Shown piece by piece: positions 1,595 to 63,916 of a stretch of 64,000 bases of DNA. Below the pieces are notes generated by a model that saw only the letters and a list, made by a program, of their open reading frames with translations, was not told the DNA's origin and ran no database searches. A program made the translations under genes and the position numbers. How positions within the stretch are numbered: position 1 is the stretch's first letter; the number at the start of each line of letters is the position of its first letter. The stretch covers positions 99,837 through 163,836 of the forward strand of contig CAYJVY010000001.1 in assembly GCA_964373795.1 (NCBI GenBank), in the 5' to 3' direction. Source of the stretch: an uncultured archaeon. Lineage in GTDB: Archaea > Iainarchaeota > Iainarchaeia > Iainarchaeales > DATDZZ01.

Positions 1595-2122
1595 ATGTTT
1601 TGGAAAAAAATTGTTTTGCTTTTTTTATTGATGTCTTTTTCGCAATTTGTTTTTGCAGGTTCATCTAAAGTTGAATTTAATTCTCTTTTAGATAAATATT
1701 TTGATTCTTCTGGAGAATTGACTCTTGAAGCAAGAAACTCTTTAAAGCAATTTAATTCTGATTTGGATAAAGTTCCGGGCGTTTTAAGGAATGCTTTTTT
1801 AGGTGAAACTATTACTTTAGAAGTTAACTTTTCTGACAATAGCACTGAATTTTTTTGTGTTAAGACAACTTCTAAAATTGAAAGCATTTCTAGAATTAAT
1901 TGTTCTAATCCTTCCTTGCTTGTTTCAATTAACGAATCTACTATTAAAGAGATTTCTTCAAGTGATAATTTTTTTGATAGTTTGGTTTCAGCTTATCTTT
2001 CTGGTGAAATAAAGGTTTCACCGGTTGGAGTTCCAGCTACTCTTAAAGTTACTTTTGTAAATATTTTTTCGGCTGTGTTTTCTTTTTTTAATTCCTTGTT
2101 TGGGAGAGTAGAGGTTAAATGA
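1595..2122 (+). CDS. Secreted or membrane-anchored hypothetical protein with N-terminal signal peptide
   Basis: The ORF track starts at GTG 1535, inside the repeat. The first ATG (MFWKKIVLLFLLMSFSQFVFAGSS) gives a classic signal peptide. Overlaps the GGPPS start by 4 bp, consistent with an operon. Confidence 0.45.
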   Translation: MFWKKIVLLFLLMSFSQFVFAGSSKVEFNSLLDKYFDSSGELTLEARNSLKQFNSDLDKVPGVLRNAFLGETITLEVNFSDNSTEFFCVKTTSKIESISRINCSNPSLLVSINESTIKEISSSDNFFDSLVSAYLSGEIKVSPVGVPATLKVTFVNIFSAVFSFFNSLFGRVEVK

Positions 2123-3192
2123 CTGAAGCAATTCAGATTTTAAAGGACTATCAGAAAAAAGTTGATGTTGAATTAATTGCTTTTTTAAATGAAAAAATTT
2201 CTGAAGCTAAAGGGCAAGATTCTTTTTCAATTGAATTGCTTAAAAGAATTAAGGAGGTAAGTGAGAAAGGCGGAGGAAAAAGAATTCGCCCTGCAATGGC
2301 TATTTTTGGTTTTAAATGTTTTGATTCTTCTACTGAAAAAGAGATTATTAAGGCATCAATTTCTTTAGAATTAATTCATACTTTTTTTTTGTTTCACGAT
2401 GACATAATGGATGAATCTGATACTAGAAGAGGATTGCCTACTTTGCATAAACAGTATGAATCCATTGCTTTAGAGTCTTTTCCTTCTTTTAATCCCAGGA
2501 GATTTGGAGAGTCAATGGCAATGCTTGGAGGAGATTTGCTTTCTTCTTTTGGTTTTGAAGCAGTTCTTAGAACTTCTTTCTCTGAAAAACAAAAACTTAC
2601 TGCTTTAAGAAAATTGAATGACATAATTTTTTTCACTTGTTTTGGGCAAATCAAAGATGTATTAAATGAAGGTAGAAAGGATTTCACTGAAGCAGATGTG
2701 TTAAATGTTCATACTTTAAAGACAGCTAAATATTCTATTGAAGGGCCTTGTCAGTTTGGAGCAATGTTTGCAAACGCTTCTCAAAAAGATTTAAAGGTTT
2801 TCACTGATTATGGAATTCCTGTTGGAATTGCCTTTCAAGTCCAAGACGATCTTTTAGGAGTGTTTGGTGATGAAAAAAAAATTGGAAAGTCTGCAGACTC
2901 TGATTTAAAGGAAGGAAAAAAAACCTTGCTTATTTTAAAGGCTTTAGAGAATGGTTCTGAAAAACAAAAAAAAGTTATTTACTCTGTTTTAGGAAACAGA
3001 AATGCTTCTCCTGAAAAAATTAATGAAGTAAGAGAAATAATTAAGGAAACTAAGAGTTTTGATTATTCTGTTAAAAAAGCTAAGGAACTACTTGAGAAAG
3101 GAAAAAAGGAAATGAAGAAATCCAAATTCAAATCCGAGGGAAAAGAGTTTTTGATTGGCATTGCTGATTACATGCTTTCAAGAGAATATTAA
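2119..3192 (+). CDS. idsA: Polyprenyl (geranylgeranyl/farnesyl) diphosphate synthase, trans-IPPS
   Basis: First aspartate-rich motif FHDDIMDESDTRRG and second aspartate-rich motif FQVQDDLLGVFGDEKKIGK are present. 357 aa. Confidence 0.8.
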   Translation: MTEAIQILKDYQKKVDVELIAFLNEKISEAKGQDSFSIELLKRIKEVSEKGGGKRIRPAMAIFGFKCFDSSTEKEIIKASISLELIHTFFLFHDDIMDESDTRRGLPTLHKQYESIALESFPSFNPRRFGESMAMLGGDLLSSFGFEAVLRTSFSEKQKLTALRKLNDIIFFTCFGQIKDVLNEGRKDFTEADVLNVHTLKTAKYSIEGPCQFGAMFANASQKDLKVFTDYGIPVGIAFQVQDDLLGVFGDEKKIGKSADSDLKEGKKTLLILKALENGSEKQKKVIYSVLGNRNASPEKINEVREIIKETKSFDYSVKKAKELLEKGKKEMKKSKFKSEGKEFLIGIADYMLSREY

Positions 3193-5834
3193 TTTTTTAC
3201 TTGTTTTTCTTTTATTGCCATTTGAGCTGCTGCGAGTTTTGCTATTGGAACCCTAAACGGACTGCAGCTAACATAATTTAATCCAATTTTGTGGCAGAAT
3301 TCAACTGAAGAAGCTTCTCCTCCGTGTTCTCCACAAATTCCTATTTCTAGTTCTGGATTTGTTTTTCTTCCAAGTTCAACACATAACTTCATTAGTTTTC
3401 CTACTCCTTCTTGATCTAATACTGCGAAAGGATCTTTTTCAAATATTTTTTTTTCCTCATAGTGTTGAACGAATTTTCCAATATCGTCTCTTGAAAACCC
3501 ATAAGTTGTTTGAGTTAAATCGTTTGTTCCAAAGGAAAAAAATTCTGCTTCTTTTGCTATTTCATCTGCTGTAATGCATGCTCTAGGCAATTCAATCATT
3601 GTTCCAATCTTGAATTTAACTCCTTTTTCTTTTAATTTTAGTTCTTCTGCGACTTTTAAAATTATTTTTTTCATTTCAGTTAATTCTTTTACTGTTCCCA
3701 CTAAAGGAATTTCGATTTCAGGTAATACCTTTATTCCTTCTTTACTTACCTCTAATGCAGCTTCTAGTGCTGCTCTTGCCTGCATTTCATATACTTCTGG
3801 ATAGCTTAGCCCTAATCTTACTCCTCTGTGGCCAAGCATTGGGTTTGTTTCTTTTAATGATTCTACTTTTGCTTTAATTATTTCTTTTTCTACATTCATT
3901 TCCTTACTCATTTCTTCTACATCTTTTTCAATAAATGGAAGAAATTCGTGTAAAGGCGGATCTAGAAATCTTATTGTTACTGGAAAGCCATTCATTTCTC
4001 TGAATAATTCTTTGAAATCATTTTTTTGTAATGGCTTGATTTTTTCTAAAGCTTTTTTTCTCCCTTCTAAGTCTTTTGCTAGAATCATTTCCCTAATTGT
4101 TTTAATCCTGTCTTCTTGAAAAAACATGTGTTCTGTTCTGCATAAACCTATTCCTTCTGCTCCAAATTCTCTTGCTTTTCTTGCATCAATTGGAGTGTCT
4201 GCATTTGCTCTTACTTTTAGTTTTCTGTATTTGTCTGCCCAATGCATTATTTCTTCAAATTCCTTGCTTAGAGTTGGATCTGTTACAGGAATTTGTCCTT
4301 TAAATATTTCTCCTGTTGCCCCGTCTAAAGTAATCCATTCACCTACTTTTATTACTTCTTGTTTTGAAGTAGTGAATTCTCCAGGATTTCCTTTAATGGA
4401 TATTTCTTCACATCCAACAATGCAGCATTTACCCATTCCTCTTGCAACAACTGCTGCATGACTTGTTAATCCTCCTCTTGAAGTTAGAATTCCTTGAGCT
4501 ACATGCATTCCTTCAATGTCATCTGGAGAGGTTTCAGCTCTAACTAAAATTATTTTTTCTCCTGGATTTTTTTCAAATAGTTCTTTTGCTTTTTCTGCGC
4601 TGAAAACAACTTTTCCTACTGCAGCTCCTGGAGAAGCAGCTAATCCTTTTGCAATTGCTTTAAATTCTTTTTTTGCTTTTTCATCTAACTGTTTATGCAG
4701 TAATTGATTTAACTGGTTTGCATTTATTTTTAGTAAGGCTTCTTTTTCTGTTAAAATTTTTTCTTTCACCATGTCTACTGCAATTTTTACTGCTGCTTTT
4801 GCAGTTCTTTTTCCATTTCTTGTTTGCAATAAATATAGCCTGTTTTCTTCAATTGTGAATTCAAAGTCTTGCAAGTCTTTGAAGTGTTTTTCTAGTTTTT
4901 CATATACTTGAATTAGTTTTTCATATGATTCTGGGAGATCTTTTTTCATTTCATCAATGTGTTTTGGAGTTCTAATTCCTGCTACTACATCTTCTCCTTG
5001 CGCGTTTAAGAGATATTCTCCGTAGTGTTCTTTTTCTCCTGTTGCAGGGTTTCGAGTGAATCCAACTCCTGTTGCACTAGAGTTTCCTTTGTTTCCGAAA
5101 ACCATTGCTTGAATATTTACAGCTGTTCCTGCATCGTCTTTTAATGAATTAATTCTTCTATAAGAAATTGCTCTAGAACTATTCCATGACTCAAAAACAG
5201 CATTAATTGTCATTCTTAATTGTTCTTCAGGGTTTTGAGGAAAACTTTTTCCTTTTGCTTTAACTAATTTCTTGTAATCTTCAACTAATTCCTTTAAATC
5301 TTGTGCACTTAAATCAGTGTCAAATTTTACTTTTCTTGCATGCTTTTTTTTTTCCAGTAACTCTTCAAAATCTGAATGACTTAACTCCATTACTACGTCT
5401 GAAAACATTTGAATAAATCTTCTATACGAATCCCATGCAACTCTTTCATTTTTTGTTTTCTCTGAAAATGCTTTAACTGATTCGTCGTTCATTCCCAGAT
5501 TTAAAACTGTATCCATCATTCCAGGCATGGAAACATAGCTTCCGCTTCTAACTGAAACAAATAAAGGGTTTTCTTTATCTCCTAATTTTTTGTTCATTTT
5601 TTTTTCTAATTCTTTTAATTTTTCTTTTACTTGTTCTTCTAATCCTTTAGGCCATTTTTTTTCTAATTCATAATATTTTTTGCATGCTTCAGTTGTAATA
5701 GTAAATCCTGGTGGAACCATTAAACCTATTGCAGTCATTTCCGCTAATTGAGCTCCTTTATTTCCTAATAGAAAAGCGCTTTCCTCGCTTGCTTTGCTTT
5801 CATTAAACGCGTATACAAGTCTTTCTTTATTCAT
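3189..5834 (-). CDS. ppdK: Pyruvate, phosphate dikinase
   Basis: 881 aa. Has an ATP-grasp N-terminal region, the phospho-histidine swivel motif GGLTSHAAVVARGMGKCCIVGC, and a PEP-utilising C-terminal TIM barrel (NDLTQTTYGFSRDD). Confidence 0.85.
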   Translation of the reverse strand: MNKERLVYAFNESKASEESAFLLGNKGAQLAEMTAIGLMVPPGFTITTEACKKYYELEKKWPKGLEEQVKEKLKELEKKMNKKLGDKENPLFVSVRSGSYVSMPGMMDTVLNLGMNDESVKAFSEKTKNERVAWDSYRRFIQMFSDVVMELSHSDFEELLEKKKHARKVKFDTDLSAQDLKELVEDYKKLVKAKGKSFPQNPEEQLRMTINAVFESWNSSRAISYRRINSLKDDAGTAVNIQAMVFGNKGNSSATGVGFTRNPATGEKEHYGEYLLNAQGEDVVAGIRTPKHIDEMKKDLPESYEKLIQVYEKLEKHFKDLQDFEFTIEENRLYLLQTRNGKRTAKAAVKIAVDMVKEKILTEKEALLKINANQLNQLLHKQLDEKAKKEFKAIAKGLAASPGAAVGKVVFSAEKAKELFEKNPGEKIILVRAETSPDDIEGMHVAQGILTSRGGLTSHAAVVARGMGKCCIVGCEEISIKGNPGEFTTSKQEVIKVGEWITLDGATGEIFKGQIPVTDPTLSKEFEEIMHWADKYRKLKVRANADTPIDARKAREFGAEGIGLCRTEHMFFQEDRIKTIREMILAKDLEGRKKALEKIKPLQKNDFKELFREMNGFPVTIRFLDPPLHEFLPFIEKDVEEMSKEMNVEKEIIKAKVESLKETNPMLGHRGVRLGLSYPEVYEMQARAALEAALEVSKEGIKVLPEIEIPLVGTVKELTEMKKIILKVAEELKLKEKGVKFKIGTMIELPRACITADEIAKEAEFFSFGTNDLTQTTYGFSRDDIGKFVQHYEEKKIFEKDPFAVLDQEGVGKLMKLCVELGRKTNPELEIGICGEHGGEASSVEFCHKIGLNYVSCSPFRVPIAKLAAAQMAIKEKQVKN

Positions 5835-33313: not shown

Positions 33314-34831
33314 TTGAAGATTGTTACTTTAAATCCGCCTTTTTTTGAAAAGTTTTCCAAGGATTCTAGGAGTCCAGGTGTATCAAAAGGAGGCTGTGTT
33401 TATTATCCTATTTGGCTTGGATATTGCACTGGATTACTTGAAAAGCAAGGACATGAAGTGAAATTAATTGATTCCCCTGCTGAAGGAATGAATTTAGAAA
33501 AATGTTTGCAAATTGTTAAAGAATTTAATCCTAGAATGATTGTAGTGCAAACAGTTACTGCAAGTTTTAATAATGACATAATGGTTGTAGAAGAATTAAA
33601 GAAAATCTTGCCAAATGTTTTCATTGCATTAGTTGGAGATCATACTAGTGCAGTGCCAATTGAGTCTCTTAAAGCAAGTAAATTTGTTGACTGTGTAACA
33701 ATTCAAGAATTTGATTTCACTGTAAGAGATATTGCAATTGCTTTAGAGCAAGGAAAAGATATCTCTACTGTTAGAGGAATTGTTTATAGAAAAATTAATT
33801 CAGATGTATTAGAAGAATTCAAGTTTACTTTGCCTCGCGAATTAATTTCAGGCCAAGACTTAGATGAATTTCCATTTGTTTCAGATGTTTATAAAAGACA
33901 TTTAACAATTGAAAACTATTTTTATCCTTCAGTGTTATATCCTGAAGTAACAATTATTACTGGCCGTGGATGCAAATACAGATGTACGTTTTGTAAATGG
34001 CCGCAGACTTTGACAATGCATGAATATAGAGCTAGGTCAGTGAAAAATGTGGTAGATGAATTTGAATGGATTGAAAAAAATTTGCCTCAAGTAAAAGACA
34101 TTATGATTGAAGATGATACTTTAACTCAAGACAAGACTAGAACAATTGAGTTATGTAAAGAAGTTGTTGCAAGAGGGTTGAAAATTCCTTGGACTTGTAA
34201 TTCCAGAGCAGACATTGATTTAGAGACAATGGAGTGGATGAAGAAAGCTAATTGTAGATTAATGTGTGTTGGATTTGAATCAGCTGATCAACAAATTTTA
34301 AACAATATTAAGAAGGGAACAATGATTCCAAAAATAAAGCAATTTGTTGTAGATGCAAAAAAAGCAGGAATATTAATTCATGGGTGTTTCATGCTTGGAA
34401 ATAAAGGTGAAACAAAGGAAACAATTAAGAAAACAGTTGCAATGGCTAAAGAATTAGATCCTGATACAGCTCAATTTTTTCCAATAATGGTTTATCCTGG
34501 AACAGAGGCATATAAATGGGCTGAAGAAAATAATTTCCTGAAAACAAAGGATTGGAGTAAATGGTTATTGCCTGATGGAACTCACAATTCAATTGTTTCA
34601 ACAGACAAATTAACTTCAGAAGAACTAGTAAGAGAATGCGATAAAGCAAGAATTGCATTTTATTTAAGGCCTGCATTTATTTTCAGAAAATTAAATCAAG
34701 TAATAAAAAATCCTTTAAAAGAATTCCCTAGATTTGTTATTTCAACTTGGATTTTCTCTAAGTACTTGGCAAAAGAAGTAAAAGAAACCATTTTTCCAAC
34801 TCCTTCCAGCAAAACAACTCTTTCAGCTTAA
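33314..34831 (+). CDS. B12-binding-domain radical SAM protein
   Basis: N-terminal Rossmann-like B12-binding region, radical SAM C-x3-C-x2-C in ITGRGCKYRCTFCKW. 505 aa. Confidence 0.7.
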   Translation: MKIVTLNPPFFEKFSKDSRSPGVSKGGCVYYPIWLGYCTGLLEKQGHEVKLIDSPAEGMNLEKCLQIVKEFNPRMIVVQTVTASFNNDIMVVEELKKILPNVFIALVGDHTSAVPIESLKASKFVDCVTIQEFDFTVRDIAIALEQGKDISTVRGIVYRKINSDVLEEFKFTLPRELISGQDLDEFPFVSDVYKRHLTIENYFYPSVLYPEVTIITGRGCKYRCTFCKWPQTLTMHEYRARSVKNVVDEFEWIEKNLPQVKDIMIEDDTLTQDKTRTIELCKEVVARGLKIPWTCNSRADIDLETMEWMKKANCRLMCVGFESADQQILNNIKKGTMIPKIKQFVVDAKKAGILIHGCFMLGNKGETKETIKKTVAMAKELDPDTAQFFPIMVYPGTEAYKWAEENNFLKTKDWSKWLLPDGTHNSIVSTDKLTSEELVRECDKARIAFYLRPAFIFRKLNQVIKNPLKEFPRFVISTWIFSKYLAKEVKETIFPTPSSKTTLSA

Positions 34832-45934: not shown

Positions 45935-46186
45935 ATGAAACCATTTCCAAGAAAACAAAGGAAAAGAACTTTTCCACCTAAAATGAAGGTAGATAGAAAG
46001 CTTTCGAAAAAACAAATCGCTTATTATCAAAAACTTGGTTTTAAAGTTTTAAGACATCCAATTTCCGCAAATTTAATTTTATTTAATCCTAAAACAGGAA
46101 AAGAAATTTGGGTTTTAGAAGAACATAGTGGATTTAGTAGAGCAATGCTTAGAAGAATTTTTCTTCCAGAAGATGAACTTGATTAA
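45935..46186 (+). CDS. Small basic hypothetical protein
   Basis: 83 aa, Arg/Lys-rich N-terminus. Confidence 0.3.
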   Translation: MKPFPRKQRKRTFPPKMKVDRKLSKKQIAYYQKLGFKVLRHPISANLILFNPKTGKEIWVLEEHSGFSRAMLRRIFLPEDELD

Positions 46187-49100
46187 ACAAATTCAAATAA
46201 ACTTTTTTGAGAAGGTTTATCGTCTTTAAAAATTGAATCAATTTCTAGTTCAGCTAATTCAATTCTTTGCTTTAAATAAGTGCTTAAATCGTAGTTGTAA
46301 ATTATTTGTTTAGCTATTTCTAAATATTTTCTTACAGTTCCTTGAGAGATTGTTAAAATTAATTCATTATTGCATTTAGTGCAAGTGCCTTTTAATGGAA
46401 TTCTTCTATACTTTGAATTGCATTTACTGCATCTAAATTGTTGTCTAGTGAAAGCGCGAGCATTTCCAATAATGTCTGGAAAGAAATGGCTTCTTAAAAC
46501 TCTTTCCAATGCATCTTTTCCTTTCACTGATTTTATTTTGAATTGCAGTTCAGCCTGTCGTTTAATTTTTTCCTCCATTTCTTTTAATTGAGTATACATT
46601 GATTGTTTTGGTCCGGCATCGAATAAAGTTGTTGAATGAGTGAAATTTAATTCAGTGAATTGATTTTCTTTTCCTAGTTTTTTTTGCACTGTTGAAATAA
46701 AATTCAAAAAACTTGTTTCATAGTTTAACGATTTTTCATATAATTCTATTGGATATTCTTTGCATGTCTCCATTGAATAAACTTCATCATCTATTTCTTG
46801 AGGATTTAATGCAACAGTAAAAACTAATGGAGCATCCATTCTTCCCCCGCTTTTATGGCTTAAATATGTTTGACTAAAATTCAATAATGAATCCATTAAC
46901 AACATTATTGAATCTTGATCTCCATCAAAATTTCTTCTTCTACACATTACTGAATATGGATGGCACCACATTAGCAATGCTTTACTGAATCCAATTACTC
47001 TTTGAACTATTCCAGCAGAAGTATGAGGAGCTAATCCAATTACTAGTTCTCCAATTAATTCTTCTTTTGAATTAACTTTATAGTATGGTTCTATTTTGTA
47101 AAATTTTTCAAGTAATTCGTCAATGAATTTACTCATTCTAAGCATCCAAATTCCGGCTTTTTCGTTCACAATTACGTCTTGAGGAAATAATTCAATTAAT
47201 TGTTCTTCTGAAGTAATTTCTTTTCCTTCAAAATCAACTGTATACCCTAATACTTTTACTTTTTCAACTGTTAAACCAATTTCTTTTGGTTTAAAAAAAT
47301 TTAATGGAGCATTTAATAACTCAAACCTGCTTGTCCCATCTCTATAAATATGAATATTGTGTTTTCCTCTTAGAATTCCTTTTTCCAATGGCTCTGGAAT
47401 CTTTGATTCAGCAAATAATCCTTTGACTCCTTTAATTAAGTCAGGCATTCTTTCATCTAAATTTTCAACTGCTTCGCCTAACATTTTTTTTAATTCAATT
47501 TTTCTTTTATTAAATTCACTTAAATTAATTGATCCGCATCCTTTACATCTTTCTCCTTCAACTATTCTCATACAGTCATTGCAAGAATTAACCTTCATTG
47601 TTCTAATTCCACATTCCTTGCAATAATAGTATGGCAAGATTTTTTCGCATTTCATGCATTTAAATAAAGCTATTTCTACTTCTATTACTCCTTCTTGTAA
47701 AGACTTTTTATCAATGTCATTCATTGCTTTGTTAATGCTTCTAGTTGGCCCTCCTTTTAATGCAATTGGAAACAATATATGTGGATTGCCTTTCATTTGC
47801 CTTTCTTTAGCTGCTTCTGGTCGCCCCATTCTTGCTCCAATAAATGTTCCACATTTATCCATTATTTTTACTCCGCTAATTTTGCTTAAAGATTCTAACA
47901 CGTTTTCTGAAACTAATTCCAAAACTTTTTCATTAAAAAACCCAAAACAAGTTAAAACATTTTTTGCGTGTTTTTCTTCAATAACTATTTTTCCGTCAAT
48001 TATTTTATGCTCTAATCCAATTAATTCTAATAAGGGTTTGATTTTTTCACTTACTTTTACTTGAATAATTCTTTCATCAAGTGATTCGATTTCCGCGTTT
48101 TTGAATTCATTAATTAATTCAATTAAATCTTTTTTAGACAAAATCTTGTAATAATAAATAAATTTTGGATGCAACGGAATTCCAAAATCTTTCGAAAGTT
48201 TGAAAGCAAAATCAAAATTCAATTCGTTTTCTCTTCCATTATTTGCAATTAATTTTTCAATTTCAACATTAAAATTATTTGAAGTAACTGCTTTTTTTAG
48301 GTCTTGAATCCACCATTCTTCAACATATGCACTTGGCACTAAAGGATGAGCTGTTTTTTTGAAATCCCCTAAAGTAACTAGAATATCTCCTAGGAAAAGG
48401 ATTTGCTCTAATTGAGGTTTAAGTTTCTCTGCTAATTCAATTGAATTTACTTGAATTACTTCCCCATTTTTTAATTTAATTATTGGGCCATCAATTGAAT
48501 CGCATGGAAATAATTGGGCTGCTTTTCCTGGGCGTTCAATTCTAATATGTGTTCCAACTGCAATGAATTCATCCAGTAAATACATTAAAGCTGGATTAAT
48601 TGCTTTAGCCATGCAACCAGTATTTCTTGCTTTTCCATATCTTAATCTAAACCCTCCAAAAGCACTTGGATATGCTAGTAAAGGCCTGCCTGCAGCCAAG
48701 CCTTCCAAGTATTTATCTGTTGGAGTTATTTCAGTTATTTTGTCTGCTGTTTTTTCAACCTTAATTATTTTTTCCAACCATTTCCAATCTAAGCTTAACT
48801 GGTTTGCCCAACTCAAAATCTTCATTGCTTTTAATGCAACTCCTTCTGATACAACTAAAGCCATTCCTCCTCTAATCCTGTTTGAAGGAATTCTGTCAAT
48901 ATTTCTATGAACTGAAACTTCTCTTTCTTCTGTTGGAATTCCATTAATGCATATAGGGCATCCTCTAATAATTGTTTTAATTTCTTCTTCCGGAACCTTG
49001 TATTGTCGAGAAATGATTTCAGTTTGATAAATCATTATTTCTTCTACATATCTTTCAACTTCTTCTTCTGTTGGTTTATATCTGTCAATGTCTAATAAGC

Positions 49101-49617
49101 TTCTAGCATAATCTGCTAAAATTAATGGAATAACTGTTGCACTTCCTCCTGCTGCTCTAATTGGTCCAGAAAAGTATACATCAATGTATTTAGTTCCATC
49201 CAGGTTTTTTGAAATTAATACTTTTGGCAATCCATCTAATGGAGATACAACTACTCCTTCAGTCATTAACACTAGTCCTGATTTAATTGCTAATTCAATT
49301 CTTTTCTGCAAATCAGGAATTTGAATCCATTTTTGTTCAATTAGTTCTCTAAAGATTTGAAACAAGGACTGCATTCTGTCTCCATTGTTTTCATTTAATA
49401 CTTCTCTATATCTTTTAGCAATTCCTGGTGGGCCACAAATTTTTTCTGCTCTTTCAGCTAAATCAGTTACAGGTAATGATTCAACTTCAGTTGAAACGTC
49501 AAATCCTTTTTCTCTAGCTTTTTTTGCTAACTCAAATTGCTTTTCAACTCTTGAAGAAATTAGTTCAAAGTATTTTTTTGTTTTTGCATCGCAAGGCCAT
49601 TTAATTTTTCCAATCAT
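46183..49617 (-). CDS. polC: DNA polymerase II (PolD) large catalytic subunit DP2, intein-free
   Basis: 1144 aa. Double-psi beta-barrel catalytic region and multiple Zn-binding Cys clusters (CNDCMRIVEGERCKGCG, CSKCNSKYRRIPLKGTCTKCN). Confidence 0.9.
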   Translation of the reverse strand: MIGKIKWPCDAKTKKYFELISSRVEKQFELAKKAREKGFDVSTEVESLPVTDLAERAEKICGPPGIAKRYREVLNENNGDRMQSLFQIFRELIEQKWIQIPDLQKRIELAIKSGLVLMTEGVVVSPLDGLPKVLISKNLDGTKYIDVYFSGPIRAAGGSATVIPLILADYARSLLDIDRYKPTEEEVERYVEEIMIYQTEIISRQYKVPEEEIKTIIRGCPICINGIPTEEREVSVHRNIDRIPSNRIRGGMALVVSEGVALKAMKILSWANQLSLDWKWLEKIIKVEKTADKITEITPTDKYLEGLAAGRPLLAYPSAFGGFRLRYGKARNTGCMAKAINPALMYLLDEFIAVGTHIRIERPGKAAQLFPCDSIDGPIIKLKNGEVIQVNSIELAEKLKPQLEQILFLGDILVTLGDFKKTAHPLVPSAYVEEWWIQDLKKAVTSNNFNVEIEKLIANNGRENELNFDFAFKLSKDFGIPLHPKFIYYYKILSKKDLIELINEFKNAEIESLDERIIQVKVSEKIKPLLELIGLEHKIIDGKIVIEEKHAKNVLTCFGFFNEKVLELVSENVLESLSKISGVKIMDKCGTFIGARMGRPEAAKERQMKGNPHILFPIALKGGPTRSINKAMNDIDKKSLQEGVIEVEIALFKCMKCEKILPYYYCKECGIRTMKVNSCNDCMRIVEGERCKGCGSINLSEFNKRKIELKKMLGEAVENLDERMPDLIKGVKGLFAESKIPEPLEKGILRGKHNIHIYRDGTSRFELLNAPLNFFKPKEIGLTVEKVKVLGYTVDFEGKEITSEEQLIELFPQDVIVNEKAGIWMLRMSKFIDELLEKFYKIEPYYKVNSKEELIGELVIGLAPHTSAGIVQRVIGFSKALLMWCHPYSVMCRRRNFDGDQDSIMLLMDSLLNFSQTYLSHKSGGRMDAPLVFTVALNPQEIDDEVYSMETCKEYPIELYEKSLNYETSFLNFISTVQKKLGKENQFTELNFTHSTTLFDAGPKQSMYTQLKEMEEKIKRQAELQFKIKSVKGKDALERVLRSHFFPDIIGNARAFTRQQFRCSKCNSKYRRIPLKGTCTKCNNELILTISQGTVRKYLEIAKQIIYNYDLSTYLKQRIELAELEIDSIFKDDKPSQKSLFEFV

Positions 49618-52623: not shown

Positions 52624-54018
52624 TTATTTTTCTTCCCTGAATTCTATTACAATTATTTCGTTCACTACTGCAATAAATTCAATTAATGCATTTAAGTCTT
52701 CTAATTCTTTGTGTCCTACTTCAATAAATCCATTTACTTCATTTGATTTTTGTTTCAAGAAATAATTTTTGTCGTTAACTTGAATTTGATTTGAATCAAG
52801 TTCAGTTAAAGCTTGTTGTTTGAATTCCTTTAAAGAAGCATTTAATGGCAACAACTCAATTACTTGTTTTTTGAATTCAACTGCGTTCTTTGTTTTCAGG
52901 CTTGCATCAACTCCAATTAATTGTTTTGGTTCATTCAATTCATACTCTGAAAAATTTAAGTCACTAAATTTTTGTTTAATGCTTTGCTTTAATTCTTCAT
53001 AATTTGCATCTAAATTAAACGCAACAAGTATTACTGGTTTGTTTAGAAGAGTATTTGCTTCAACTTTATTTACATCTTTCACTTCTTCCATTGCTTTACT
53101 TAATTCATTTATTTTATTTGAATCAAATGAATTTAAATCAATTGAAATTATTGGATTAAATTTTTTTGCTTCAATTAAAACAGAGTTAACATCACTTAAT
53201 TTTTCTAAACCTGTTTTAAATGAATTCACGTCTAATGTAGGCAATGTTTTTTCAAAAGTGAAAATAGTTCTAGGCTTTAATTCTTTTAACTTAATTGTTT
53301 TCTGAAATGACTCTTGAACAGGAGTTCGAGTAACATTGTTTACTTCAATTCCAATTATTTGCAGTAATTGTTCTCCATTAAAAGAAGCTTGTTCAACTAA
53401 ATTTATTTCATCTTGTTCTTCTGTTTCCAGTCTTACAAAACCTGGAACAATATTTGAATCAAATTCATGAATTCTTTGAATTGATTCATCTTCAGTTGAA
53501 ATGAATTTAACTTTTTTTGGTACTTCAATTAATGCACTGCTTAAAACCTCGAAATTAAAAAGCATTAAAGCTTTTTCTTGAATTTCTTCAACTATTTCTC
53601 TTTTAGTTCTTTGAGATTCATCTAACGAAATTTGTGCAACGTACAACAAATTTATTCCACTTAAACCTTGCTGTGGAAGCTGTCTGTAATTAGATGAAAG
53701 ATTTGCTACTCCTTTTACTTGCAGTATTGCTGAATCAATTGATTGTTTTTCTGCTTCTTCAGTTCTAGCAGTTAAAATAATGTTTGGATTAATTTCTTGA
53801 ACTCTTCCAGTTACTTCTTCTGATCTGAATACCTCTATTCTGTTTTGATTAATTAAAGGCAAGTTTTGATCCTGGTTTTGAGGGGGTTGTCCTCTTACAT
53901 CTGTTGGATCTTGTTGATTGTCTTGATTATTTCCTGAACTTAATTGAATTCCAATTCCAATGCTTGAAGCCAAGAACAAAGCAACAATAAATAAACTCAT
54001 TAATTGTTTTGAATCCAT
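52624..54018 (-). CDS. Secreted hypothetical protein with signal peptide
   Basis: 464 aa, N-terminal hydrophobic segment, Gln/Asn-rich linker. Confidence 0.4.
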   Translation of the reverse strand: MDSKQLMSLFIVALFLASSIGIGIQLSSGNNQDNQQDPTDVRGQPPQNQDQNLPLINQNRIEVFRSEEVTGRVQEINPNIILTARTEEAEKQSIDSAILQVKGVANLSSNYRQLPQQGLSGINLLYVAQISLDESQRTKREIVEEIQEKALMLFNFEVLSSALIEVPKKVKFISTEDESIQRIHEFDSNIVPGFVRLETEEQDEINLVEQASFNGEQLLQIIGIEVNNVTRTPVQESFQKTIKLKELKPRTIFTFEKTLPTLDVNSFKTGLEKLSDVNSVLIEAKKFNPIISIDLNSFDSNKINELSKAMEEVKDVNKVEANTLLNKPVILVAFNLDANYEELKQSIKQKFSDLNFSEYELNEPKQLIGVDASLKTKNAVEFKKQVIELLPLNASLKEFKQQALTELDSNQIQVNDKNYFLKQKSNEVNGFIEVGHKELEDLNALIEFIAVVNEIIVIEFREEK

Positions 54019-55662: not shown

Positions 55663-58600
55663 ATGGATTATATAAAGCAAATAAAGGACACTATTTTGGA
55701 ATCGCTTCCAAAAGAAGCACTAGTTACTACAGTTGATTTAGAGGGCCCAGAAATAGCTATTTATACTAAAAACCCTAAAATGTTTTTTGAAAACCAAAAC
55801 CTAGTAGCAAAAGCAGCATTTGATTTAAAGAAAAGAATTAACATTAGAACAGATAAAAGTCTTTTAACTGAAGAAAACAAAGCAGAAAAAACAATTAGAG
55901 AAATTGTTCCACAAGACGCAGACATTAGAGACATTTCATTCAATCCAGCTTTTTCAGAAGTAGTAATTGAAGCAATTAAGCCAGGACTAGTAATTGGAAA
56001 AGGCGGAGAAACATCCAAGCAAATTATTTTAGAAACAGGTTGGACTCCAAACATTATTAGAGCTCCTACTTCTCCTTCAAAGATTTTGAAAGGCTTGCGA
56101 AACCATTTACATAAATATTCTAGTGAAAGAAAAAAAATTTTGCAAGACATTGCAAGAAAAATTTATGCTGAACGATCCGAAAACGCTAAGAATTGGATTA
56201 GATTACATGCTTTAGGTGCTTTCAGAGAAGTTGGAAGAAGCTGTGTATTTGTTGAAACCCCTTATACAAAGGTTTTACTTGATTGTGGAGTAAATGTTGC
56301 AAACAACGCAGAACCATATCCTTATTTAGATGCTTTAAATTTTTCAGTTGACAGATTAGATGCAGTAATAATTTCTCATGCTCATTTAGATCATTCTGGA
56401 ATGCTTCCATATCTTTTCAGACTAGGTTATAGAGGCCCGGTTTATTTAACAAAGCCTTCAAGAGACTTAATGTGTTTACTTCAATTTGATTATATTGATG
56501 TATTAGTTAAAGAAGGAAAAGAACCTCCTTACACTGAACAAGACATTAAAGAAATGATTAAGTACTGCATTACTCGTGAATACAGGGAAGTAACAGATAT
56601 TGCTCCAGACATGCGTTTAACTTTTCACAATGCCTCTCATATTCTTGGCTCGAGTTCAGTTCACTTGCATATAGGAAATGGTCAACACAATTTAGTTTAC
56701 TCTGGAGACATTAAATTTGGTTTTACTCGTTTATTTAATGATCTTGATTTAAATTTTCCAAGAATTGAAACACTAATAATTGAATCAACTTATGGATCTA
56801 AAATGGATCTTCATCCTAAAAGAATGGATGCAGAAAAAAACTTAATTCAAGTAATTAAGGAAACAATTCAAACAGGTGGAAATGTTTTAATTCCAGTTTT
56901 CGCTGTTGGAAGAGCTCAAGAAATAATGCTTGTATTAGAAGAAGGCTATAAAAGAGGAGAACTAGATGGAATAAATGTTTACGTTGATGGAATGACTAAA
57001 GAAGCTTCAGCAGTTCACACTGCTTATCCTGAATACTTGAGAAGCAAAGTTCAAAGAAGAATTCTTCAAAACGATTCGCCTTTTACTTCAGAAATATTTA
57101 AAGAAGCAACTTGGGATCAAAGAGATGAAATTCTTGCAAAAGGTTCAGCAGTAATTCTTGCTTCTTCTGGAATGCTTACAGGAGGAGCTTCACTTGATTA
57201 CTTAACTAAAATGTCTTCAGATCCAAACAATACAATAGTGTTTGTTGGATTTCAAGGACAAGGATCAACTGGAAGAAAAATTCAATCAGGAATTAAAAGC
57301 TTTCCAATTACAGCTGAAAACAGTAAAACAAAAGAATTAGTAATCAATATGCGAGTTGAAACAATTGAAGGATTTTCAGTTCCATATGAAACAGATGTAA
57401 TGATTAAAAGAAATAATTTGTTTGAATTAATTGAAATTGGAAAACTAGCAGATGAATTTCTGCCAAAAACCTCTGAAGGTTTAGTGGAGTTAAAAAGAAT
57501 TCAAGTTCCTGCATTTGATTTCAACGGAAAAATTTCTTGGCATGCTGTAAGCCATTTATTGAAGCATAAAAGTAAAGACAATCACTTGCTTTTTAAAACA
57601 AAATCTGGAAAAGAAATCCAAGTATCTAAAGGGCATAGCCTGTTTTGCTTTAAAAATAAGGCAATTCAAGCCTTGCCTGCAAACAAATTAACTACTGGCT
57701 CTCACATTGTAATTCCAAATAAATTGCCTGAATCTCACTCAATTCATTCAATTCAATTCCAAGAATTTGTTGACAATAAAAATTATGTTTTAAACGAAGA
57801 GCTTAACAAATTTGAACCAATGAAAGGTGGAAACAAAAAATCCTTTTTAATTTCTGAATGCAAGGATATGAAAAAACTTGCAAGGTTTTTAGGATATTAT
57901 ATTTCTGAAGGAAACATTGAAAAAGGAAAAGGCAATAGAGCAATTTTAAGCTTTGGAGCACATGAAAAAAACTTAATTGAAGATGCAATTGATTGCAGTA
58001 AAACTTGTTTTGGAATAACTCCAACCATTCATAAGCCTCACAAAACCGAAACACAGCTAAGGATCCATAATAAAATGTTGGTTGAATTTTTGGAACAAAT
58101 TGGTTGTGGTGAAAGAGGTTCAAGCAAAAGAGTTCCAAAAATTGTTTTAAATTTTTCAATTGAAGTTCAAAAAGAATTCTTGAAAGCATATTTTGAAGGC
58201 GATGGTTATATATACAAGAATGGAGGAAAAGGTTATCTGGCTGCAAAATCCATTAGCAAGAAACTTGTTTCAGATCTTTCCTATCTTCTTTTACAACACG
58301 GAATTGTTCCAAGAATTAAAGGTCCAATAAAAGAAAAAGCAAGGGAATTGAATGGTAATTTCTTGAAAGAATCAATTATTTTCAAAATATATTTGTCTGA
58401 AAAAGACTTTACAAAAATTCAAAGAAATATTGGCATTGCTCCGTTTGCATTGCCTTTAATTGAAATTAATTTGAGGAGCTGGTATACTGCAATATCTAAT
58501 CCAAAACTAAGAAAATTAGCTAATGCTTACATTAACGCTCTTGAAAAAAAAGGAAGAAGCTATATTGGATTACATGTTTTGAGACAGTTTTTGAATGCCT

Positions 58601-58974
58601 TAAATGAATCAAAGTTGAATAAAAAAACTCTTGAATTAATTTCAACACTAAAATGCTTATCTTTAAACGACATTTTAGTTGACGTGATTACAGAAATAAA
58701 AGAAGTTTCTTCAGGAGAATTTGAATACGACTTTGTTGTTCCAGGCAAAGAAAATTTTGTTGGAGGTTTTGGTGGAATAATGCTTCACAATTCAGGGCAC
58801 AGTGACAGATCAGAATTAACTAATTATATTCGCACTCTAAAAATTAAACCTAAAAGAGTAATAGTTGACCACGGAGAAAAATCTAAAGCAATTGAATTCG
58901 CGAAATTCATTACAGCTAAATTCAAAATCAATTCCACTGCATTACAAAACCTTGATGCAATAAGGTTAGAGTAA
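55663..58974 (+). CDS. aCPSF1 (KH + metallo-beta-lactamase + beta-CASP ribonuclease) interrupted by an intein
   Basis: Two N-terminal KH domains, MBL HAHLDHSG, beta-CASP. The extein is 631 aa, against about 635 expected. The intein is inserted inside the GF|SGHSD His-motif C. Confidence 0.8.
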   Translation: MDYIKQIKDTILESLPKEALVTTVDLEGPEIAIYTKNPKMFFENQNLVAKAAFDLKKRINIRTDKSLLTEENKAEKTIREIVPQDADIRDISFNPAFSEVVIEAIKPGLVIGKGGETSKQIILETGWTPNIIRAPTSPSKILKGLRNHLHKYSSERKKILQDIARKIYAERSENAKNWIRLHALGAFREVGRSCVFVETPYTKVLLDCGVNVANNAEPYPYLDALNFSVDRLDAVIISHAHLDHSGMLPYLFRLGYRGPVYLTKPSRDLMCLLQFDYIDVLVKEGKEPPYTEQDIKEMIKYCITREYREVTDIAPDMRLTFHNASHILGSSSVHLHIGNGQHNLVYSGDIKFGFTRLFNDLDLNFPRIETLIIESTYGSKMDLHPKRMDAEKNLIQVIKETIQTGGNVLIPVFAVGRAQEIMLVLEEGYKRGELDGINVYVDGMTKEASAVHTAYPEYLRSKVQRRILQNDSPFTSEIFKEATWDQRDEILAKGSAVILASSGMLTGGASLDYLTKMSSDPNNTIVFVGFQGQGSTGRKIQSGIKSFPITAENSKTKELVINMRVETIEGFSVPYETDVMIKRNNLFELIEIGKLADEFLPKTSEGLVELKRIQVPAFDFNGKISWHAVSHLLKHKSKDNHLLFKTKSGKEIQVSKGHSLFCFKNKAIQALPANKLTTGSHIVIPNKLPESHSIHSIQFQEFVDNKNYVLNEELNKFEPMKGGNKKSFLISECKDMKKLARFLGYYISEGNIEKGKGNRAILSFGAHEKNLIEDAIDCSKTCFGITPTIHKPHKTETQLRIHNKMLVEFLEQIGCGERGSSKRVPKIVLNFSIEVQKEFLKAYFEGDGYIYKNGGKGYLAAKSISKKLVSDLSYLLLQHGIVPRIKGPIKEKARELNGNFLKESIIFKIYLSEKDFTKIQRNIGIAPFALPLIEINLRSWYTAISNPKLRKLANAYINALEKKGRSYIGLHVLRQFLNALNESKLNKKTLELISTLKCLSLNDILVDVITEIKEVSSGEFEYDFVVPGKENFVGGFGGIMLHNSGHSDRSELTNYIRTLKIKPKRVIVDHGEKSKAIEFAKFITAKFKINSTALQNLDAIRLE
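57376..58791 (+). other. Intein (472 aa) with LAGLIDADG homing endonuclease inside aCPSF1
   Basis: Block A SVPYETDVM (Ser1), C-terminal block G VGGFGGIMLHN followed by extein +1 Ser. LAGLIDADG motifs FLGYYISEGN and FLKAYFEGDGYIY. Confidence 0.7.
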
Positions 58975-60678: not shown

Positions 60679-60918
60679 ATGATTTTGACTCTAGAATCTC
60701 TTTTAGAACATGTTTTGGTTCCGAAACACGAAGTAGTTCCAAGAACTCAAGTTCAAGAAGTATTAGAAAAATATGGAATTACTTTGGAAAAACTTGCTTT
60801 AATTTCTGTTGATGATCCAATTGTAACTGAATTGCAAGCAGATAAAGGAGATTTAATTAAAGTTACTCGTTTTAGTCATACTGCTGGGGAAAGCATTTAT
60901 TTTAGATTAGTTGGTTAA
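60679..60918 (+). CDS. rpoH: DNA-directed RNA polymerase subunit H (Rpb5 homolog)
   Basis: 79 aa. HVLVPKHEVV...KGDLIKVTRFSHTAGESIYFR is the conserved Rpb5 C-domain. Confidence 0.8.
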   Translation: MILTLESLLEHVLVPKHEVVPRTQVQEVLEKYGITLEKLALISVDDPIVTELQADKGDLIKVTRFSHTAGESIYFRLVG

Positions 60919-63916
60919 AGGAGAGATTGAATTGAATAACTTGGAATTAATTGATGCTTATTATAGAAGTAAAAAAATTTCTAAAATGGAAATTGATTCT
61001 TTTAATCAATTCTTGGATTTAAAATTAAATGAAATAGTTGATGAAAATAAATTTGTTTCTCCTAAAATGGAGGAAGTAAGAATAGAGTTATCAAAAATAG
61101 AGGTTTTAAAGCCAAGAATAATTGAAGCAGATGGTTCTCCTAGATCAAACTTTTTTCCAATGGAGGCTCGTTTAAGAAACAGAACTTATGCTTCCCCGAT
61201 TTTTTTAACAATGACTTTGCTTAGAAGAGATGTAGAACAAGACGTAAAAAAAGCTTATATTGGGGATCTTCCAGTAATGCTTAAATCAAATCGTTGTTGG
61301 CTTGAAGGAAAATCAGATGAAGAATTAGTTGAAATGGGTGAAGATCCATTAGATTTTGGTGGATACTTTATTATTAATGGATCTGAAAAAGCTTTAATGA
61401 CTCAAGAAGTTTTGGCTTCAGATAGAGTAATGATTGCTGAATCATCTCAAGAGAAAACAATTTCTGAAGTGATTTCAACTCGAGGAGCATTTAAGGGAAG
61501 GACAAGAGTAATTCGTTCTCCAGACGGAACATTAAATGTTACTTTTCCTGCTTCTCCAAAAAAATTAAACTTATATGTTTTATTAAAAGCTTTAGGAATG
61601 AAGTCAACTAATCAAATAACTGATGCTTTTAGTGACTTAAAAGAAATTAGAAACGATGTATTAATTAATTTTGAAAATCTTGACGTTAAAGATGAAGAAG
61701 AAGCATTAGATAAAATTGGAAAATATGTTGCTCCAGGACAAGTAATTGATTATAGATTGAAAAGAGCTCAAGAAGTAGTAGACGCATTTTTATTGCCTCA
61801 TATTGGGCAAAACCCTGAAGACAGATTAGCTAAAGCATACTTTTTATGCATGATGGCTGAAAAAGCAATTGAAAAAGCTAATGGTTTAAGAGGCGAAGAC
61901 GATAAAGATCATTATGCTAATAAAAGAGTTGAATTAAGTGGAAAATTAATGGAGCACTTATTTAGATATGCATTCAAATATTTTATCAAGGACTTGAAAT
62001 TCCAAATTGACAGAACTATTACTCGTAGAAGAAAACTAAACATTTCAACTGTTGTTCGCCCAGGAGCTGTAACTGAAAGAATTCGTTTTGCAATGTCTAC
62101 TGGAAACTGGATTGGCAGAGCAACAGGAGTAAGCAAATTCATGGACAGAGTTAATTACATTGCTCCTTTAACTGATTTAAGAAAAGTTAAATCTCCTTTA
62201 GATAAAAGTCGAGAATTATATGAAGCAAGAGATGTTCATGGAACTCATTGGGGTAGACTTGATTGCATTGAAACTCCTGATGGGCCTCAATGCGTTTCTC
62301 CTGAAACTGAAATGCTTTTAGATGATTATACTGCAATTCAAATAAAAGATTTTGAAGAAATTTGGAGAAACAAAAAAATTTCTTCAATTGATTGGAATAA
62401 AGAAGATAAAAGTGAAGTTAAATCCAGTATTGCTAGATTCATTAAGTTAACTCCAAATAAAAAGGTTTTCAAGATTAAAACTAAGGAAACTGGAAGAGAA
62501 TTAATTGCTACAATTGATCATCCTTTTTACTCTGAATTGAAAGGAAAAACAGATTTAAGCAATTTGCATGAAGGAGAAAGAGTTGCTGTTTTGCCAATTA
62601 AAGCACTTAAATTTGAAAAACCTGTAAAAGAATTAATTTTATCAGAGCAAGACATTATTAATGCATGTCCAGAAAAATCTGATCAAGAACACATTTTAAA
62701 TGAATTAAAATCAAAAAACTTAATTCCGTTTTATTCAGATAATGAAAACATTTTAATTGCTTCAAAAATTTTAGGCCATTTATTTGGAGATGGAAGCTTA
62801 ACTCTTTCAATGAAAAAATTTAAATCCAATTATGCAATTGTTTTTTCTGGAAACAAAGGAGATCTTGAAGACATTTCATTAGATGTTAAAAAACTTGGCT
62901 TTAATGCTTCAAAAATTTCTCAATTAAAAAGAAAATCTATTTTAACTAATGGAAGAATAATTGAAGGAACATCTACTTTAATGCATTGTTATTCAAAGCC
63001 TTTATGGGTTTTCTTTAAAGCTTTGGGAGCGCCAAATGGGGACAAAGTTTTAACAGAATATTCAATTCCTGCATGGATTAAAAATCAAAGAAAAATTGTA
63101 GTAAAAGAATTTTTATCTGCATATTTTGGAAGCGAAATGACTAAACCGCAAGTAGATAAAAGAGATGAAAAAATATTTTTACAGCCAACGTTTTCATTGA
63201 ATAAATCAAAGGACTTGGTTTTAAGTGGAATTAAATTCACTGAAGAATTAAAGGAACTTCTTTCATTATTTGATGTGAACATTTCTAAAACAAAAATTGT
63301 TGACTGTATTCAAAGAAAATCAGGTATTGAAACAAGAAAAATTAAAGTGTTATTTTCTTCCAAGATAGATTCTTTGCTTAATTTGTTTGGATTAATTGGA
63401 TTCAATTATTGTAGAGAAAGAAATAGTTTGGCAAGACTTGCATTTGAATATCTTTTAACTAAAAAAACTTTAATTGAAAAAAGAACTTTATTACAACAAT
63501 CAACAATTAATTTGTCTAATAAAGGCTTTAATGAACAACAAATTTTAAGTGAATTAAAACAAGGCCTGCGATTACATGATGTACTTAATTGGGTTAAAAA
63601 ATCTAAACAAGGAGATGAAATTTCTCCAAGAGTTTCAGAAATTGATTTCCCTAAATTTGATGAATGGATTAGAAGTCATGCGATTTCCGAAAATGGTTTG
63701 TGTTGGGAAACAATTGAATCAATTCAAGAAACAAATTGCAGCGAAGTAATGGATGTAACAACTTTGCAAGATTATCACAATTTTTTTGCAAATGGTTTTT
63801 TAACAGGAAATTGTGGGCTAGTAAAAAATCTGTGTTTATTGGCAGAGGTTACAACAGAGTCAAGTCAAGAACCAGTTGAAAAATTATTGAATGAAATGGG
63901 AGTGAAACTTAAATGA
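60911..63916 (+). CDS. rpoB2: DNA-directed RNA polymerase subunit B'' (N-terminal half of split RpoB) interrupted by an intein
   Basis: 494-aa extein with THWGRLDCIETPDGPQ | CGLVKNLCLLAEV (Rpb2 CGLVKNL motif). A 507-aa insertion sits between Q460 and C+1. Confidence 0.8.
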   Translation: MVKGEIELNNLELIDAYYRSKKISKMEIDSFNQFLDLKLNEIVDENKFVSPKMEEVRIELSKIEVLKPRIIEADGSPRSNFFPMEARLRNRTYASPIFLTMTLLRRDVEQDVKKAYIGDLPVMLKSNRCWLEGKSDEELVEMGEDPLDFGGYFIINGSEKALMTQEVLASDRVMIAESSQEKTISEVISTRGAFKGRTRVIRSPDGTLNVTFPASPKKLNLYVLLKALGMKSTNQITDAFSDLKEIRNDVLINFENLDVKDEEEALDKIGKYVAPGQVIDYRLKRAQEVVDAFLLPHIGQNPEDRLAKAYFLCMMAEKAIEKANGLRGEDDKDHYANKRVELSGKLMEHLFRYAFKYFIKDLKFQIDRTITRRRKLNISTVVRPGAVTERIRFAMSTGNWIGRATGVSKFMDRVNYIAPLTDLRKVKSPLDKSRELYEARDVHGTHWGRLDCIETPDGPQCVSPETEMLLDDYTAIQIKDFEEIWRNKKISSIDWNKEDKSEVKSSIARFIKLTPNKKVFKIKTKETGRELIATIDHPFYSELKGKTDLSNLHEGERVAVLPIKALKFEKPVKELILSEQDIINACPEKSDQEHILNELKSKNLIPFYSDNENILIASKILGHLFGDGSLTLSMKKFKSNYAIVFSGNKGDLEDISLDVKKLGFNASKISQLKRKSILTNGRIIEGTSTLMHCYSKPLWVFFKALGAPNGDKVLTEYSIPAWIKNQRKIVVKEFLSAYFGSEMTKPQVDKRDEKIFLQPTFSLNKSKDLVLSGIKFTEELKELLSLFDVNISKTKIVDCIQRKSGIETRKIKVLFSSKIDSLLNLFGLIGFNYCRERNSLARLAFEYLLTKKTLIEKRTLLQQSTINLSNKGFNEQQILSELKQGLRLHDVLNWVKKSKQGDEISPRVSEIDFPKFDEWIRSHAISENGLCWETIESIQETNCSEVMDVTTLQDYHNFFANGFLTGNCGLVKNLCLLAEVTTESSQEPVEKLLNEMGVKLK
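62291..63811 (+). other. Intein (507 aa) with LAGLIDADG endonuclease inside rpoB''
   Basis: Block A CVSPETEMLL. LAGLIDADG motif 1 ILGHLFGDGSL, motif 2 diverged (FLSAYFGSEM). C-terminus ANGFLTGN followed by Cys+1, with the penultimate His replaced by Gly. Confidence 0.65.

Follow-up and report, generated by a model that had tools for sequence, protein, structure and literature searches.

The window that we analyzed is a 64,000-nucleotide stretch of contig CAYJVY010000001.1 (positions 99,837 to 163,836) from an uncultured archaeon of the Iainarchaeota. On its plus strand, an open reading frame (ORF) at 55663..58974 encodes a precursor of 1103 amino acids, plus a stop codon, of aCPSF1 (or FttA). 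This protein, an orthologue of eukaryotic CPSF-73, serves archaea as their general transcription-termination factor. The ORF comprises KH domains, a metallo-beta-lactamase (MBL) domain, a beta-CASP domain, an intein, and an RMMBL domain. Judging from its sequence, the 472-residue element in this essential beta-CASP RNase is a genuine intein of class 1, in which a LAGLIDADG homing endonuclease is nested.

We assigned the host gene to aCPSF1/FttA (arCOG00543) by its score above the cut-off of the equivalog hidden Markov model, its domain architecture, and its catalytic motifs. With the model (TIGR03675 from NCBIfam), the score is 830 bits (cut-off 580), and the match is interrupted at residue 572 and continues beyond the insert. 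In Pfam, the domains KH_TffA, Lactamase_B, Beta-Casp, and RMMBL are located on the flanks of the insert. The catalytic motifs are intact: MBL motif 2 is HAHLDH (residues 239–244), motif A lies in FAVGRAQE (413–420), and motif C reads SGH574SD once the protein is spliced. The exteins share 73% identity with relatives and keep all of the motifs.

The insert occupies 57376..58791 on the plus strand and is in frame. It begins with SVPYETDVM at residue 572 of the precursor and ends with ...GGIMLHN at residue 1043, after which the host resumes with SGHSD. The sequence-only reading of this DNA had given the same coordinates and length, and they are exact to the base when the ORF is read through. The N-extein (55663..57375, plus strand, residues 1–571) ends in ...NMRVETIEGF; it covers positions 2–572 of the TIGR03675 profile and aligns to MTH1203 (2ycb) as far as F576. 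The C-extein (58792..58974, plus strand) consists of 60 amino acids and the stop, and opens with S(+1)-G-H-S-D; the codon for the zinc-ligand histidine of motif C is 58798..58800.

In mature numbering, the insertion point is F571/S572 (here and below, a slash marks a junction). The earlier reading had the intein splitting motif C, FSGH(S/A)D, exactly. In substance that is correct: the break falls within the motif, but it precedes the zinc-ligand histidine (H574) by two residues and is not at the histidine itself. When the insert is removed in silico, the product has 631 residues and aligns end to end, with no gap at the junction, to MTH1203 (2ycb, E = 5e-209), PH1404 (3af5), and FttA from T. 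kodakarensis (9bct). Comparing the extein halves with intein-less orthologs was the check that had been proposed, and it leaves motif C continuous. The restored junction, IEGFSGHSDR, is the same as in MTH1203, and the predicted spliced junction peptide is ...VETIEGFSGHSDR. Counted along the alignments, the equivalent position in MTH1203 is F576/S577. Two residues further downstream comes the histidine, which is numbered H579 in MTH1203 and H594 in PH1404. We take H574 of the window protein to correspond to His418 of CPSF-73, on the basis of the conserved F-S-G/A-H-S/A/T-D motif and knowledge of the family rather than a residue-by-residue alignment to CPSF-73. In CPSF-73, His418 (motif C) coordinates zinc and is diagnostic of the members that cleave RNA (PMC4770246).

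Splicing and endonuclease motifs of the insert

The insert carries each of the motifs involved in splicing, from Ser1 to His471-Asn472. Block A (residues 1–8, S1-VPYETDV, 57376..57399) starts with Ser1, the presumptive first splicing nucleophile, which is found in every same-site homologue (described below). Block B (residues 83–90, V-S84-K-G-H87-SLF, 57622..57645) has serine in place of the threonine of the TxxH motif and aligns with TSGH of PI-PkoII; SKGH is kept in every same-site homologue. Blocks F and G (residues 448–472, 58717..58791) read EFEYDFVVPGKENFVGGFGGIMLHN, also written as EFEYDFVVPGKENFVGGFGGIMLH-N, and correspond to invariant columns of the alignment and to the TIGR01443 model. 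Block G ends in ENFVGGFGGIMLH471-N472, with a penultimate histidine and a terminal asparagine, and the +1 residue of the C-extein is serine. All of these features, and those of the endonuclease, are on the plus strand.

The endonuclease has two LAGLIDADG motifs, both supported by Pfam and by alignment. Motif 1 (residues 168–180, 57877..57915) is LARFLGYYISEGN, or LARFLGYYIS-E178-GN with its acidic residue numbered, and motif 2 (residues 268–278, 58177..58209) is FLKAYFEGDGY, which includes D276. Both acidic residues are kept, as the earlier reading had stated. Between these motifs, KRVPKIV (residues 251–257, 58126..58146) forms an endonuclease block with a conserved lysine and aligns with nKRIPefv of PI-PkoII.

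The original proposal of a full-length LAGLIDADG intein in aCPSF1 is upheld, and the splicing residues are intact. Profile searches also identify the insert as an intein. Intein_splicing from Pfam scores 51.8 bits (cut-off 35.8), and LAGLIDADG_3 matches two stretches with 76 bits. From NCBIfam, TIGR01445 (intein_Nterm) scores 34.8 bits (cut-off 24.5) and TIGR01443 (intein_Cterm) scores 17.3 bits (cut-off 15.6). With a family profile as the query, the best solved relative is PI-PkoII (2cw7, E = 1.5e-40), and the match spans block B, both LAGLIDADG regions, and block F/G.

The predicted structure agrees with these assignments. An AlphaFold2 model of the intein, built from an alignment of seven sequences, has a mean pLDDT (predicted local distance difference test) of 78 and a pTM (predicted template-modeling score) of 0.82. 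With Foldseek, the whole chain of the model matches inteins that contain an endonuclease, namely TliVMA (7qss, TM-score 0.69), PI-PkoII (2cw7, TM-score 0.70), PhoVMA, and PI-PfuI (1dq3). The intein structures 7qss, 2cw7, 1dq3, 5o9i, and 4e2t are all matched at a probability of 1.00, with the mini-inteins matching the Hint part. The middle of the model matches structures of I-DmoI (TM-score 0.64–0.70, normalized to the target), which have the alpha-beta-beta-alpha-beta-beta-alpha endonuclease fold. In both sequence and modeled fold, the insert has every feature expected of an intein of class 1 that holds a two-motif LAGLIDADG endonuclease.

An ORF of 147 amino acids runs antisense to the intein (57803..58246, minus strand). 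We take it to be a chance ORF in AT-rich DNA.

Same-site inteins and the empty site

Among the 120 best homologues of the window's aCPSF1, 117 are 563–650 amino acids long (typically 627–634) and contain no intein domain. The closest homologues of the exteins (65–73% identity) bear the annotation Candidatus Diapherotrites, ainarchaeum, or just "archaeon," so that the most likely source of the window is a Diapherotrites-like DPANN archaeon. The other three of the 120 contain an intein, at the motif C site in two of them (P0010 and P0044) and elsewhere in the third (P0093). P0010 differs from the window protein by a single substitution; a look-up of the exact window protein in the contig index gave no match, and this one-residue variant came up in the homologue search. 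Because P0010 stems from an independent Logan assembly, the window's intein is not an assembly artefact. P0044 is a protein of 1101 amino acids whose intein is 53% identical, and whose exteins are 69% identical, to those of the window. In a locus from Micrarchaeota (L001), the same-site intein is 56% identical and the exteins are 49% identical. The identities of intein and extein are incongruent between these pairs, which fits horizontal movement, although it is weak evidence alone.

Using the intein alone as the query, we found more copies at this site: P0001 (the same sequence as locus L002), P0002, P0003 (annotated as Diapherotrites), P0004, P0005, and P0006. In all, a homologous intein is present at the identical site in nine further sequences (P0010, P0044, L001, L002/P0001, and P0002 to P0006), and all of them have Ser1, the terminal HN, and SGHSD. 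The same-site copies all read EG[FYL]/S[VI]...HN/SGHSD. In a scan of one genome per species of the Genome Taxonomy Database (GTDB), L001 and L002 were the only same-site loci. The same-site inteins from metagenomes (P0001/L002, P0002, P0003, P0004, P0044, and L001) share the insertion point and the block sequences with the window's intein and are 41–56% identical to it. Their hosts belong to other DPANN lineages (Micrarchaeota, Diapherotrites, and an Aenigmatarchaeota-like organism), and in some of them the endonuclease is degenerate or deleted. Part of the endonuclease is missing from P0004, which has asparagine instead of the aspartate of motif 2, and P0005 and P0006 have no endonuclease domain at all. 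To judge by these motifs, the same-site family spans full-length inteins, inteins with a degenerate endonuclease, and mini-inteins, which is the series expected of a homing element. Automatic annotation labels the public same-site copies just "intein/homing endonuclease" or "LAGLIDADG family homing endonuclease," and none of these copies came up in the literature that we searched.

A close relative of the window (L059) has an empty site. The gene order is the same in both (FKBP, proteasome beta, aCPSF1, and, further on, RpoH and RpoB''), and the aCPSF1 of L059 has no intein. The DNA at its empty site, GTTGAAACAGTTGAAGGCTTT/TCAGGGCAC, differs at two positions over 30 nucleotides from the target that we reconstructed for the window, GTTGAAACARTTGAAGGNTTT/TCAGGGCAC; overall, 47 of 60 nucleotides are identical. 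The empty site of L059, which can also be written as AATTTAAGGGTTGAAACAGTTGAAGGCTTT/TCAGGGCACTCAGACAGAAAAGAATTAAGC, is a candidate target of the endonuclease.

The contig of P0044 (L060) has an IS200/IS605-type pair at 1744..3316, upstream of aCPSF1 and between the FKBP and proteasome genes. This pair consists of an OrfB_IS605/Cas12f-like TnpB and a Y1 transposase, and it is not present at the equivalent place in the window or in L059.

Proposed protein splicing and homing, and alternative explanations

The insert is very probably a real intein that splices, and we propose the following route from the established mechanisms of class-1 inteins and LAGLIDADG endonucleases. Translation would yield the 1103-residue precursor. 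This should be inactive because the intein puts 472 residues between the MBL core and the zinc ligand of motif C. Splicing would begin with an N-O acyl shift at the F571-Ser1 bond, and the +1 serine would then attack the resulting ester (transesterification). Asn472 would cyclize with the help of His471, which would release the intein, and an O-N shift would rebuild the F571-S572 bond to give ...IEGF-SGHSD.... The end products would be a normal aCPSF1 of 631 amino acids and a free intein of 472 amino acids. Given this arrangement, the termination factor would need protein splicing before it could bind its second zinc and before it could have any function. We speculate that splicing beside the zinc site may allow the termination factor to mature only under certain conditions, such as when metal is available. 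The element also adds an intein with serine at both position 1 and position +1, and so free of cysteine at these positions, that may serve as a tool for protein engineering.

The free intein would probably cleave intein-less aCPSF1 alleles near the junction of GTTGAAACARTTGAAGGNTTT and TCAGGGCAC, and recombinational repair would copy the intein into them. Homing of this kind would account for the patchy distribution of the intein and for its location at an invariant catalytic motif. The earlier reading considered the endonuclease probably active; we lean the same way, but with much less assurance than for splicing.

The most serious alternative is that the intein splices but its endonuclease has lost its activity, so that the element is a fixed passenger, passed on by vertical inheritance and no longer mobile. 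The endonuclease is degenerate or lost in three same-site relatives (P0004, P0005, and P0006), and inactive endonucleases are common among inteins in general. Also, the composition of the intein is fully ameliorated to that of its host, and the window's other intein, which is in RpoB'', has no Pfam match to LAGLIDADG_3. On the other hand, the window's intein retains both LAGLIDADG motifs with their acidic residues as well as the KRVP lysine block, and these are kept in the four other full-length same-site copies. Their conservation at just 41–56% identity argues that selection still acts on the endonuclease. The patchy distribution among close relatives and the existence of a nearly identical empty target also speak against a fixed passenger. 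We consider an inactive endonuclease to be a real but distinctly less likely possibility than an active one.

Alternatively, the insert could be a domesticated, non-splicing domain, specific to this lineage, that remains part of mature aCPSF1, or the gene could be a pseudogene. We found no direct support for a non-splicing domain apart from the serine in place of threonine in block B. Blocks A, B, F, and G are all present, and Ser1, His87, His471, Asn472, and Ser+1 are all intact, so the insert is not the kind of lineage-specific domain without these blocks that the earlier reading had named as a way to refute it. A retained insert two residues from a zinc ligand in the MBL core would disrupt the active site, yet the exteins are highly conserved. 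As for a pseudogene, the frame stays open through all 1103 codons, and the genome is AT-rich (about 31% GC). Both of these explanations seem very improbable. Finally, a chimera of assembly or binning that joined a foreign intein to aCPSF1 might be imagined for a window that is probably metagenomic and from an uncultured source, and DPANN archaea do carry related inteins in many further host genes, but we give this almost no credence: both junctions are codon-exact, the independent Logan assembly (P0010) encodes the same 1103-residue protein but for one substitution, and homologous inteins are at the identical site in at least five other metagenomes.

Three points weigh against our conclusion that this is a mobile, splicing intein in the host's aCPSF1. 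First, block B has serine instead of the usual threonine; in the sampled family we counted 36 inteins with TxxH and 2 with SxxH, though the same-site homologues all share the serine. Second, the intein and the host gene do not contrast clearly in composition: GC content is 0.30 in the intein and 0.33 in the host gene, and GC content at third codon positions is 0.21 and 0.17, so there is no compositional sign of a recent arrival. Third, our knowledge of the copy number of aCPSF1 covers the 64-kb window, and there may be a second, intein-free copy elsewhere in the genome, which would count against it. A tRNA scan of the window found none, and so gave no signal of an integration site.

The other intein in the window is at 62291..63811, within an ORF on the plus strand (60911..63916). 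It is 507 amino acids long and interrupts RpoB'' (NF007175, 558 bits) after ...IETPDGPQ. It begins with Cys1 (CVSPETEM...) and ends in ...GFLTGN/C, with glycine rather than histidine as the penultimate residue. Intein_splicing was found in it, and LAGLIDADG_3 from Pfam did not match at E ≤ 0.001, so its endonuclease may be degenerate. The RpoB'' of L059 is intein-free (487 amino acids). We rejected the idea that the window's two inteins are recent copies of one another, as they share only 25% identity over 123 amino acids (E = 8e-4). PolD DP2 (46183..49617, minus strand) matches its 1125-position profile from end to end, which bears out the earlier statement that it is free of inteins.

Two other genes in the window deserve mention. 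A conserved ORF of 464 amino acids (52624..54018, minus strand) matches no NCBIfam family at E ≤ 1e-5. Its syntenic equivalent in L059 has 457 amino acids, a similar orientation, and no match in Pfam, and L060 has a 464-residue gene there that is cut by the contig end. The gene at 33314..34831 (plus strand) encodes a B12-binding radical SAM protein whose best model is the hopanoid-associated HpnJ (419 bits, which is under the cut-off of 578 bits); one would not expect this family in a DPANN archaeon.

aCPSF1 and other beta-CASP RNases as intein hosts

As a rule, inteins in essential proteins of information processing are located at catalytic motifs, and the transcription proteins known to host inteins include TFIIB and RNA polymerase A''. 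In the searchable literature, we found no paper that describes an intein at this aCPSF1 allele or that links inteins meaningfully with aCPSF1, FttA, CPSF, or beta-CASP. In one article (PMC12713403), intein and aCPSF1-related topics occur separately, in the reference list. The main text of the intein survey by Novikova et al. 2016 (PMC4760082) does not mention an aCPSF1-type host. According to the same survey, the top archaeal intein hosts include MCM, PolD, PolB, RNR, and RFC; no metallo-beta-lactamase/beta-CASP category is in the top 15; and core parts of the transcription and translation machineries have few inteins.

To look at aCPSF1 more broadly, we used a full HMMER scan of 1.84 billion representatives clustered at 50% identity, which yielded 46 full-length aCPSF1 proteins among the top matches. 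Thirteen of these 46 are 915–1220 amino acids long and contain inteins. The earlier claim that an insertion in aCPSF1 is uncommon is therefore correct for the searchable literature and for the motif C site, but not for aCPSF1 as a host, since these 13 representatives have inteins at other sites.

We mapped the breaks onto the numbering of the window's exteins. In nine representatives (P0132, P0137, P0141, P0143, P0148, P0151, P0153, P0154, and P0164), Cys1 inteins are inserted at H244/S245, directly after the HxHxDH motif. Other inteins are found at G329/S330, beside motif 3 (P0133); at Y346/S347, in the VYSGD of motif 4 (P0130, P0131, and P0149); and at L262/T263 (P0093). The gene at 885..4460 of locus L027 has an intein at P411/V412, just N-terminal of the FAVGRAQE stretch that includes the motif A glutamate, and L057 and L061 have one at Q531/G532, in the GYQ region. 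Together with F571/S572 in motif C, where the window and the same-site copies have theirs, there are at least seven insertion sites in aCPSF1 genes from metagenomes. Nearly all of these adjoin catalytic residues, and the motif C site is among the rarer ones.

L057 (2491..7108) and L061 (2..2732) are Aenigmatarchaeota-like loci from two independent assemblies, JGI 3300043544 and ENA ERZ27247226, and in them aCPSF1 is divided among three ORFs with ATGA stop/start overlaps. The first ORF encodes the N-terminal part of aCPSF1 and ends ...FVGYQ/CVKGDTQIIL..., with an N-terminal intein fragment of about 110 amino acids. The second is a free-standing LAGLIDADG endonuclease gene (about 295 amino acids). 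The third encodes a C-terminal intein fragment of 40 amino acids (MKLKLVKIKK...IIVHN/CEG...) fused to the C-terminal part of aCPSF1. The three ORFs look like the product of an intein that is naturally split, with its halves separated by a free-standing endonuclease gene. Such an arrangement can be compared with the "fractured genes" that were reportedly described by Dassa et al. in 2009. The C-terminal part of aCPSF1 also holds the motif C intein, which is full-length in L057 and lacks the endonuclease in L061.

Inteins related to the one in the window are found at the homologous position of other beta-CASP proteins. In a metagenome-assembled genome from Woesearchaeota (L004, 178..2895), RNase J (TIGR00649, 428 bits after excision) contains an intein that is 30% identical to ours, with the junctions KDIHT/S...HN/SGHCGRED. 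P0184, an MBL/beta-CASP/RMMBL protein without KH domains, has a Ser1 intein with the junctions FMDF/S...HN/SAHTD. Both inteins are 30–35% identical to the window's intein, and their position is homologous to its motif C site. In an all-against-all BLAST comparison of 49 inteins of the clade, which were chosen by family-specific patterns and compared by BLAST rather than with a tree, the motif C inteins of aCPSF1, of RNase J, and of the KH-less protein were mutually nearest outside of their own groups. This suggests that the motif C intein has passed between paralogous nucleases through their shared S-G/A-H target.

With at least seven sites in aCPSF1, a motif C intein in three paralogues, and an aCPSF1 that is fractured by a split intein, beta-CASP RNases may be an unrecognized hot spot for inteins in uncultivated archaea, mainly DPANN. 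We offer this idea tentatively, as a possibility somewhat short of probable. The element in the window is itself of the ordinary selfish kind, and it brings to light no new type of element or mechanism. The novelty lies in the host gene and in the insertion allele, neither of which we found described in the searchable literature; what is added is a termination factor as the host, the proximity to a zinc ligand, and the wider pattern among beta-CASP proteins. That pattern would carry the rule that inteins target catalytic motifs from the P-loop ATPases of replication to metallo-beta-lactamase nucleases.

Compared with characterized inteins, the window's intein has a familiar layout. PI-PkoII (the Pol-2 intein of Thermococcus kodakarensis), TliVMA and PhoVMA (7qss and 7qst), and PI-PfuI also have a Hint domain that is split by a two-motif LAGLIDADG endonuclease, with an extra helical region. 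They differ in their hosts (DNA polymerase B, V-ATPase, and RNR) and are only 13–21% identical to the window's intein, which has Ser1/Ser+1 and S-x-x-H.

By sequence, the intein falls in a large clade with Ser1 and the block G signature ENFVGG-x-GG-xx-HN. From the extein flanks, we take the hosts of this clade, in DPANN and other uncultured archaea, to be TFB, MCM, Top6B, CDC48, a FlaI/VirB11-type ATPase, and V-ATPase. The TFIIB mini-inteins of Mja and Mvu (5o9j and 5o9i), like the DPANN members of the Ser1 clade, share with the window's intein Ser1, the ENFVGG-x-GG-xx-HN signature, and serine or threonine at +1. The TFB intein, like the aCPSF1 intein, sits in a core transcription factor. These mini-inteins and the members of the DPANN clade are in other host genes and are 25–30% identical to the window's intein.

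The survey mentioned above describes the clustering of inteins at the P-loop and metal-binding motifs of replication proteins (PMC4760082). The inteins of beta-CASP RNases appear to follow the same logic: the inteins are inserted where an essential protein's catalytic motif is most conserved, and the homologous sites of its paralogues are occupied as well. Unlike the replication proteins covered in that survey, the host in the window is a metallo-beta-lactamase/beta-CASP RNase of transcription termination.

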